Below, piece by piece: positions 38,861 through 39,120 of a stretch of DNA of 64,000 bases (the stretch's first letter is position 1; each line of letters begins with the position of its first letter). The notes below the pieces were generated by a model that worked only from the letters and a program-made list of their open reading frames with translations, was not told the origin of the DNA and did not search any database. This DNA comes from Escherichia coli. GTDB lineage: Bacteria > Pseudomonadota > Gammaproteobacteria > Enterobacterales > Enterobacteriaceae. The DNA is taken from the NCBI RefSeq assembly GCF_016903815.1, contig NZ_CP069973.1. One strand, given 5' to 3'. The position numbers and the translations under genes were made by a program.

Positions 38861-38917
38861 GCCTGTTATTTATCAGCGTCTACCCTTTAAGAGTCCACCC
38901 AATGACCGGAGGGAAAT

Positions 38918-39091
38918 ATGACGACACTTATTTATTTGCAAATTCCTGTCCCTGAACCGATTCCTGGCGATCCTGTTCCAGTGCCCGATCCGATCCCTCG
39001 CCCGCAACCCATGCCTGACCCACCACCCGATGAAGAACCGATTAAATTGTCGCATCGTGAGCGTAGATCTGCGAGGATACGCGCCTGCTAA
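38918..39091 (+). CDS. Small proline-rich ORF (57 aa) upstream of dbpA
   Basis: GGAGGG SD 5 nt upstream of ATG; MTTLIYLQIPVPEPIPGDPVPVPDPIPRPQPMPDPPPDEEPIKLSHRERRSARIRAC. Confidence 0.45.
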   Translation: MTTLIYLQIPVPEPIPGDPVPVPDPIPRPQPMPDPPPDEEPIKLSHRERRSARIRAC

Positions 39092-39120
39092 CTTTGCGTC
39101 GATGACCACGAGAATAGATT

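Follow-up and report, generated by a model that had tools for sequence, protein, structure and literature searches.

Short open reading frames (ORFs) with consecutive proline codons have been described upstream of other genes, among them mgtP (mgtCBR) and mgtL (mgtA) of Salmonella and the engineered hisL-PPP and pyrL-PPP. The speed of translation on these ORFs depends on EF-P or Pro-tRNA, and those of the mgtP and mgtL type lie on the mRNA that they regulate, overlapping alternative stem-loops, terminators or rut sites. SecM, TnaC and MifM are also encoded upstream of another gene and carry a conserved C-proximal peptide segment behind a variable N-terminus. The proline-rich ORF between fnrS and dbpA of Escherichia coli resembles the former as a short upstream ORF with consecutive Pro codons, whose translation speed may likewise depend on EF-P or Pro-tRNA, and the latter in its conserved segment, its variable N-terminus and its place ahead of another gene. 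Its match to the YnaL family (Pfam PF23677; ynaL in K-12) is complete: the sequence is the same, the fnrS-ynaL-dbpA position is the same, the profile HMM is matched over its full length, and there is no difference. VanOrsdel et al. 2018 (PMC6001520) listed the identical 57-aa sequence between fnrS and dbpA, detected YnaL by chromosomal SPA tagging and immunoblotting in LB cultures, and noted a positive result for ynaL in a tetracycline ribosome-profiling screen as well. In the same study, the adjacency to dbpA raised the possibility of a ynaL-dbpA operon. No functional work on YnaL later than this study was found in the literature searched.

We analyzed the locus in a window of 64,000 nucleotides of E. 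coli (contig NZ_CP069973.1), whose relevant features are collected in Table 1. The initial annotation had concerned the span 38861-39120, which is the entire FnrS-dbpA intergenic space and not the ORF alone, and had proposed for the ORF within it either a real small protein or a translation-sensing leader ORF for dbpA. The ORF runs on the + strand from ATG 38918 to the TAA at 39089-39091 and encodes the 57-aa peptide MTTLIYLQIPVPEPIPGDPVPVPDPIPRPQPMPDPPPDEEPIKLSHRERRSARIRAC. Its description as a peptide dominated by P-x-P repeats with a DPPPD run is accurate: 16 of the 57 residues are proline (28%), there are 12 overlapping PxP triplets, and DPPPD forms residues 34-38. The GGAGGG Shine-Dalgarno (SD) sequence ahead of the ORF and the location between FnrS and dbpA were also found as described, with a gap of 29 nt from the ynaL stop to the GTG of dbpA in E. 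coli. As for the small protein, the proposal was right and is already on record. A megablast search with 38640-39200 against 5426 complete E. coli genomes recovered the region in 5392, and in every row that we inspected the RefSeq annotation of the ORF reads "ynaL: proline-rich small protein YnaL". The ynaL CDS of a 100%-identical E. coli record has exactly the coordinates of the ORF (WP_001296046.1), and residues 1-57 align with positions 1-57 of the profile PF23677, "Protein YnaL-like" (136.9 bits, with the cut-off at 27; E=2.1e-40). The ORF is the known gene ynaL, with a published and annotated product. What is new about it is that the gene is split into a core constrained as peptide and a tail constrained as DNA, and that the latter overlaps the dbpA promoter.

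Table 1. Coordinates of features in and around ynaL, given as positions in the window.
Feature	Position	Strand	Basis
zntB, upstream of FnrS	37660-38643		
FnrS sRNA, upstream neighbour	38739..38856	+	Rfam RF01796, 134.8 bits, full length
FnrS intrinsic terminator: hairpin, then T-run	38833-38852	+	terminator scan
Candidate ynaL promoter: TTGCCT (38859-38864), 16-nt spacer, TACCCT (38881-38886)	38859..38886	+	cross-species alignment, inferred
ynaL SD GGAGGG, 4 nt before ATG (5 nt if the core is GGAGG)	38908..38913	+	sequence
ynaL CDS, proline-rich small protein YnaL	38918..39091	+	RefSeq WP_001296046.1, Pfam PF23677, published SPA tagging
N-terminal 15 codons of ynaL, variable in sequence and length between genera	38918..38962	+	protein and DNA alignments
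Pro-rich acidic core, residues 16-40, PGDPVPVPDPIPRPQPMPDPPPDEE	38963..39037	+	amino-acid-level purifying selection
PPP codons CCA CCA CCC, residues 35-37 in DPPPD, expected EF-P-dependent pause site	39020..39028	+	sequence; general EF-P literature
Block 1, CCGATTAAATTGTCGCAT, putative AT-rich upstream/-35 region, synonymous sites frozen	39038..39055	+	third-position non-major fraction 0.027
Hypervariable putative promoter spacer, ynaL codons 47-49	39056..39064	+	non-major fraction 0.31/0.45/0.49 at the three codon positions
Block 2, putative dbpA core promoter: AGATC, TG (39070-71), n (39072), GAGGAT, discriminator	39065..39086	+	near-invariant in 69 species
dbpA primary TSS, +1 G, 2 nt before the ynaL stop codon	39087..39087	+	Kim 2012 (PMC3415461), mapped to the window
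dbpA 5' UTR, 34 nt, with conserved weak SD-like CGAGA at 39109-39113, 7 nt before GTG	39087..39120	+	alignment consensus
dbpA CDS, ATP-dependent RNA helicase DbpA, GTG start	39121..40494	+	

ynaL lies on the same strand as dbpA, while ttcA in the same window lies on the opposite one. Between the FnrS terminator and the SD, the cross-species alignment showed a conserved TTTGCC-N16-TCTACCCT, which we regard as a candidate ynaL promoter with a predicted start near 38892-38893. A simple promoter scan did not call this candidate, and the list of transcription start sites (TSSs) of Kim et al. 2012 (PMC3415461) holds none between fnrS and NC_000913.2 position 1407501, and so none for ynaL. The transcript may originate from a weak promoter of its own or from read-through of the FnrS terminator. 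Since the terminator scan found nothing between ynaL and dbpA, ynaL transcripts should also run into dbpA, and the two genes would form an operon with an internal dbpA promoter. Translation of ynaL is driven by its own strong SD and ATG, as the published immunoblot, the tetracycline ribosome profiling and the conservation of SD and start codon show.

A database search returned 162 members of the YnaL family, which span about 20 genera, including Escherichia, Citrobacter, Salmonella, Enterobacter, Klebsiella, Raoultella, Kosakonia, Leclercia and Lelliottia. In an alignment of 30 sequences, the first ~15 residues varied freely, and the remainder, DPxPxPDPIPRPQPMPDPPPDEEPIK(L/M)SH...RSARIRAC, was nearly invariant. 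To avoid ascertainment bias, loci were fetched with DbpA as the query; the 80 loci obtained in this way and the E. coli RefSeq copy, which is identical to the window, gave a set of 81 loci. ynaL was intact upstream of dbpA in 69 of these 81 dbpA loci (Enterobacteriaceae), indicating that the ORF is more than a product of chance. Among the 69 loci, the ORF measured 44 to 64 aa, and an ATG with a preceding GGAG-type SD was present in 65. The distance from the ynaL stop to the dbpA start ranged from 14 to 63 nt with frame classes of 25/22/22, that is, with no preferred frame. dbpA itself starts with GTG in 79 of the 81 loci.

The nature of the constraint differs along the gene. For residues 16-40, the non-major fraction at codon positions 1/2/3 was 0.062/0.045/0.391 over the 69 loci, and for codons 2-100 of dbpA in the same genomes it was 0.070/0.030/0.365. 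The core of YnaL therefore varies in a manner indistinguishable from dbpA, with a coding pattern as strong, and is under real purifying selection at the protein level. The 3-nt periodicity of core variability (0.06/0.04/0.39) falls in the ynaL frame, and the two indels that we examined in the PxP tract were both in frame. DPPPD was found in 62 of the 69 loci, with DPPPN in 3, DPSPD in 3 and DPPQE in 1; correspondingly, PPP was retained in 65 and replaced by PSP in 3 and by PPQ in 1. An antisense ORF of 78 aa (38873-39109, - strand) was rejected as coding, for in its frame the variation concentrates at the first codon position, and 9 of the 69 species carry stops in it.

The last ~50 nt of ynaL showed another pattern. 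Block 1 consists of the codons CCG ATT AAA TTG TCG CAT, and in block 2 the codons AGA TCT GCG AGG ATA CGC GCC (39065-39085) were essentially invariant, with a third-position non-major fraction of 0.006; they are among the rarest in E. coli and include AGA, AGG and ATA. Among dbpA codons whose amino acid is invariant, only 8% reach the third-position constraint seen in blocks 1 and 2. In 12 of 69 species the spacer between the two blocks holds a stop codon, so that YnaL is truncated before the basic tail and the gap to dbpA becomes 57-63 nt. Block 2 stays invariant in these 12 species. Its sole substantially variable base is position 39072, which is C in 58 and A in 11 of the 69 loci and would be the n of a TGn motif. 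Two blocks around a variable spacer, together with this variable base, pointed to a promoter of the extended -10 type followed by a GC-rich discriminator, and from conservation we predicted a dbpA start at 39085-39087 before any TSS data were looked up.

Published data agree with this advance prediction. In a single dataset, Kim et al. 2012 (PMC3415461, supplementary file 2) reported a dbpA TSS at NC_000913.2 1407501 on the + strand with 126 reads, a 5' UTR of 34 nt and the upstream sequence ACCGATTAAATTGTCGCATCGTGAGCGTAGATCTGCGAGGATACGCGCCTG, obtained by 5'-triphosphate-enriched 5' RACE-seq on mid-exponential E. coli. This 51-mer occurs once in the window, at 39037-39087, which sets +1 at G39087. 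The SMRT-Cappable-seq supplements contained no match for a TSS at this locus. Relative to the mapped start, the putative -10 hexamer GAGGAT (39073-78) occupies -14 to -9, the extended -10 TG lies at -17/-16, the 8-nt, GC-rich discriminator ACGCGCCT (39079-86) fills -8 to -1, and block 1, within 50 nt upstream of the TSS, covers -49 to -32. These promoter elements are assigned from geometry, conservation and the outgroups described below. GAGGAT has the A at position 2 and the T at position 6 and matches the -10 consensus at 3 of 6 positions. The best -35-like hexamer, TTGTCG, is separated from GAGGAT by 20 nt, and TCGCAT, at 17 nt, matches at only 2 of 6 positions, so that the E. coli promoter has no -35 hexamer at 16-18 nt. 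Because of the 3/6 match of the -10 hexamer and the displaced -35-like hexamer, a simple scanner calls no dbpA promoter in E. coli.

The loci without ynaL point in the same direction. In Kluyvera (5 loci), FnrS and blocks 1 and 2 are kept, and a deletion extends from just after the conserved CTACCCT to block 1, removing the SD, the start codon and the Pro-rich core. As Kluyvera lost the ORF but kept both blocks, the blocks serve dbpA and not YnaL. The genera Dryocola, Cedecea, Atlantibacter and Siccibacter, which also do without ynaL, have at the homologous place ATGACC-N17-TGCTAGAAT/TAGACT/TAGCAT followed by a GC-rich discriminator. Unlike E. coli, these outgroups possess a -35 element (ATGACC) at 17 nt from the -10, and the promoter scanner independently calls the form ATGACC-17-TG-TAGAAT in Dryocola.

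Taken together, these results make it very probable that the ORF is the known, independently translated ynaL, that its core is constrained as a protein, that its 3' ~50 nt are the dbpA promoter, and that the main dbpA mRNA carries no ynaL. On this explanation, YnaL is constrained as a protein only in its central, acidic PxP stretch, which spans roughly residues 16-40 and closes with DPPPDEE. The 3' end would read, in order, as an AT-rich upstream block, a variable spacer, TGnGAGGAT, the 8-nt GC-rich discriminator and the +1 at G39087. The synonymous sites there are frozen because the dbpA promoter overlaps them, and the conserved RSARIRAC tail of YnaL is read-through of promoter DNA and does not reflect constraint on the protein. 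The main dbpA mRNA lacks ynaL since it starts 2 nt before the ynaL stop. Any EF-P sensitivity of DPPPD, as expected from the literature, would mainly affect YnaL itself and not the bulk of dbpA expression.

The suggestion that ynaL is a translation-sensing leader ORF for dbpA fared less well than the small protein. Here, ynaL would sense EF-P or proline: pausing at DPPPD on ynaL-dbpA read-through transcripts would uncouple translation from transcription, and Rho loading on the C-rich Pro-coding RNA, or some other switch, would tune the transcription that reaches dbpA. Much about the locus fits such a role. ynaL always adjoins dbpA on the same strand without a terminator in between, PPP is kept in 65 of 69 species, and the conserved peptide comprises the ~20 residues before and including PPP behind a free N-terminus, as in arrest peptides. 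The Pro-coding segment is rut-like with a C/G of 2.2, dbpA combines a GTG start with a weak SD, and precedents have been published in polyproline-dependent Rho polarity, mgtP, mgtL, tnaC and hisL-PPP reporters. The location of the main dbpA TSS at 39087 speaks against it, for an mRNA that starts after the ORF body cannot have ynaL as its leader. An RNA switch or attenuator was rejected for lack of a terminator and of any conserved or unusually stable structure: RNAalifold on 20 species gave -5.96 kcal/mol with a covariation term of 0.06, and thus no conserved structure, the E. coli sequence folded no better than its shuffles (z = -0.71), and the dbpA 5' UTR formed no stable structure (z = +0.49). 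The 3'-end and Rho tables of Adams 2021 have no entry for fnrS, ynaL or dbpA, and hence neither a Rho-termination region nor a 3' end at the locus, which is weak negative evidence. Moreover, the spacing between the ynaL stop and the dbpA start is not constant (14 to 63 nt), 4 of the 69 species have replaced PPP, Kluyvera manages with no such ORF, and tagged YnaL accumulates to detectable levels. We consider a leader function unlikely, and read-through ynaL-dbpA transcripts may be subject to polarity or coupling to a minor degree. Much of the same evidence bears on translational coupling, by which ribosomes that finish ynaL would re-initiate at the weak dbpA GTG 29 nt downstream or unfold the RNA around it, possibly block 2 GAGGA..GCG paired with dbpA codons 2-5. 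The short gap, the GTG start and the weak SD would suit this mechanism, and RNAalifold proposes an 8-bp interaction of 39073-39083 with ACCGCUUUUUC of dbpA. Both sides of this helix, the only long-range one that RNAalifold gave, are invariant and so provide no covariation, the fold is not more stable than shuffles (the z-score above), and by eye the helix is not retained in the outgroups. The main dbpA mRNA does not include block 2, and the two genes show a random frame relation in place of the conserved overlap of stop and start, or their separation by a few nt, that marks termination-reinitiation. Coupling is accordingly a decidedly unlikely account of the arrangement.

Could the frozen 3' blocks be an RNA element or a regulator-binding site, for instance an autoregulatory site or an sRNA target, and not simply a core promoter? 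All 21 of 21 bases, including the spacer AGATC, are near-invariant in 69 species, which is beyond typical promoters, and the -10 hexamer matches its consensus poorly. The position of the block, on the contrary, fits the mapped primary TSS exactly, substantial variation is confined to the n of TGn, and a canonical promoter occupies the homologous place in the outgroups. The block lies mostly upstream of +1 and is therefore absent from dbpA mRNA, the change C39072->A disrupts a candidate UGCG/CGCG hairpin and is not compensated (by eye), and the Rfam search found no family besides FnrS. An element of this kind in place of the promoter is improbable; a core promoter nevertheless ordinarily requires fewer than 21 near-invariant bases, and for this reason a further factor or a role at the RNA level may act on top of it. 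Several other identities of block 2 were rejected by eye: a sigma-54 -24/-12 promoter, as Enterobacter does not preserve the GC; a promoter for sigma-E or sigma-28, given the poor upstream match; a MerR-type promoter with a 20-bp spacer, as the hypervariable spacer leaves no operator; and mimicry of 23S rRNA around helix 92, with which it has just a 6-7-mer in common. The opposite extreme would be that the whole ORF is a translated but functionless by-product, conserved only through overlapping nucleotide-level elements. This does describe the C-terminal third, with its rare codons, frozen synonymous sites and a tail dispensable in 12 species. For residues 16-40 it is contradicted by the codon-phase test, in which abundant synonymous and near-zero non-synonymous change was seen over 25 codons in 69 species, and the conserved SD and ATG as well as the in-frame indels of the PxP tract also oppose it. 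As an account of the entire gene, it is extremely improbable.

Returning to the reading of ynaL as a gene with a protein-constrained core, we turn to the product. AF2 with the family alignment gave a pLDDT of about 90 for residues 21-40, no DSSP element in that segment and a pTM of 0.22, which indicates a confidently predicted, extended polyproline-II-like segment without a globular fold. In charge, the acidic core (net -5) contrasts with the basic tail of the E. coli protein (+5). No PDB relative was found. Matches to the TonB polyproline region PF16031 (TonB_N, 11 bits against a cut-off of 33) and to NF008084 (20.8 bits against 315) were sub-threshold, and homology to TonB or to surface proline-rich proteins was rejected because these matches are compositional. 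YnaL would most likely act in trans as a linear binding motif, and not as an enzyme or a membrane protein. Pausing at PP motifs and its dependence on context are described in the general EF-P literature, from which it is plausible that synthesis of YnaL depends on EF-P at DPPPD. A bolder idea ties the acidic PxP/PPP core to DbpA and the ribosome, either as a polyproline-II peptide that would bind DbpA or late 50S precursors in trans, or as a nascent chain that, gauged by EF-P, would set upstream transcription through or against the internal dbpA promoter. This is a long shot, and if true, it would link translation-elongation capacity to the 23S rRNA helicase. Synteny and the pattern of conservation are the only support for a function of this kind.

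As a discovery, the ORF matters little, given its existing annotation and a product that had already been demonstrated. The overlap of the two genes matters in other ways. The mapped promoter of dbpA removes a tempting but weak story of regulation by a leader ORF, and the striking conservation of the YnaL C-terminus, RSARIRAC with the rare codons AGA, AGG and ATA, comes from the overlapping promoter. Consequences also arise for the design of mutants and tags: tagging ynaL at its 3' end, or deleting the gene, will disturb the promoter and the TSS of dbpA. The part of YnaL to study is the core of ~25 residues with its acidic PxP and PPP, and Kluyvera offers a natural ynaL deletion.

Overall, ynaL departs in several features from the described systems that it resembles. 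Compared with mgtP and mgtL, the body of the ORF precedes the start of the main dbpA mRNA, and the locus has no conserved structure or terminator. Compared with SecM, TnaC and MifM, no conserved RNA structure under the control of stalling covers the start of the next gene, which lies at a variable distance of 14 to 63 nt, and the product accumulates. The TonB polyproline region (PF16031) and proline-rich antimicrobial peptides share the alternating PxP with YnaL, probably as an extended polyproline-II rod. By contrast with the cationic antimicrobial peptides, however, the YnaL core is acidic, and YnaL has no signal or membrane anchor. The promoter within the gene has a counterpart of its own. 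Sigma-70 promoters of the rrnB P1 type have a GC-rich discriminator and a long distance from -10 to +1, and dbpA is a ribosome-assembly gene. The dbpA promoter resembles rrnB P1 in its 8-nt GC-rich discriminator and AT-rich upstream block, and differs from it in the weak -10 GAGGAT with extended TG and in the -35-like TTGTCG 20 nt away. No report of ppGpp/DksA or growth-rate control of the dbpA promoter was found in the literature searched. By analogy, a geometry like that of rrnB P1 would suit a gene that takes part in ribosome assembly.

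In five Kluyvera loci (L071, L073, L075, L077 and L079), about 95 nt upstream of dbpA, the Shine-Dalgarno sequence, start codon and Pro-rich core of ynaL, the 57-aa small-protein gene between FnrS and dbpA, are deleted; FnrS, a CTACCCT motif and the two promoter blocks of dbpA are all retained. Judged from sequence, Kluyvera is a natural ynaL knockout inside Enterobacteriaceae. Among loci that keep the gene, the PPP run of its core is not universal: three species carry DPSPD instead and a fourth has DPPQE (loci L007 of E. albertii, L009 and L011 of Citrobacter, and L044 of C. 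amalonaticus). Because PPP is replaced in those four species, retention of ynaL does not strictly depend on strong stalling at polyproline. Indels in the surrounding PxP tract stay in frame: a 33-nt deletion in E. coli E69 (L004) converts IPVPEPIPGDPVPVPDPIP to IPVPDPIP, and one Salmonella enterica variant (protein P0053) carries a 30-nt duplication giving PDPRPHPQPM twice. This pattern suggests frame-preserving slippage mediated by repeats.

The AGATCT hexamer of the dbpA promoter, which contains a GATC Dam site, is invariant in all ynaL-bearing species and missing from outgroup promoters. Its invariance may reflect sensitivity to methylation or SeqA, or the binding of an extra factor. RNAalifold proposed a pairing between dbpA codons 2-5 and a segment of promoter block 2. 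This pairing cannot be tested by covariation, since both sides are invariant, and could be relevant only on a read-through ynaL-dbpA mRNA.

For ynaL itself, the TTTGCC of a candidate weak promoter upstream of its Shine-Dalgarno sequence closes the T-tract of the FnrS terminator, and the table of Kim 2012 (PMC3415461) contains no TSS in this interval. An antisense ORF of 78 aa was rejected as coding by codon-phase analysis and by stops in 9/69 species. A further tiny annotated ORF of the neighbourhood, 15 aa long and directly upstream of zntB, is ydaN, with product 'protein YnaN' (RefSeq annotation, NZ_CP023820.1).

Coordinates of features around ynaL and dbpA (window numbering unless stated)
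Feature	Position	Strand	Details
Candidate weak ynaL promoter	38858-38886		conserved TTTGCC, 16 nt, TCTACCCT
ydaN	~37600-37650 (equivalent); 460-507 in L001, the identical E. coli RefSeq copy
78-aa antisense ORF	38873-39109	-	overlaps whole ynaL
AGATCT	39065-39070		-22 to -17 of dbpA promoter
Block 2 pairing arm	39073-39083		GAGGA..GCG
dbpA pairing arm	39124-39134		ACCGCUUUUUC
dbpA first codons	39121-39134		GTG ACC GCT TTT TC

Finally, synonymous sites in the first codons of dbpA are nearly invariant across genera, which suggests that translation initiation at the GTG start is under constraint.
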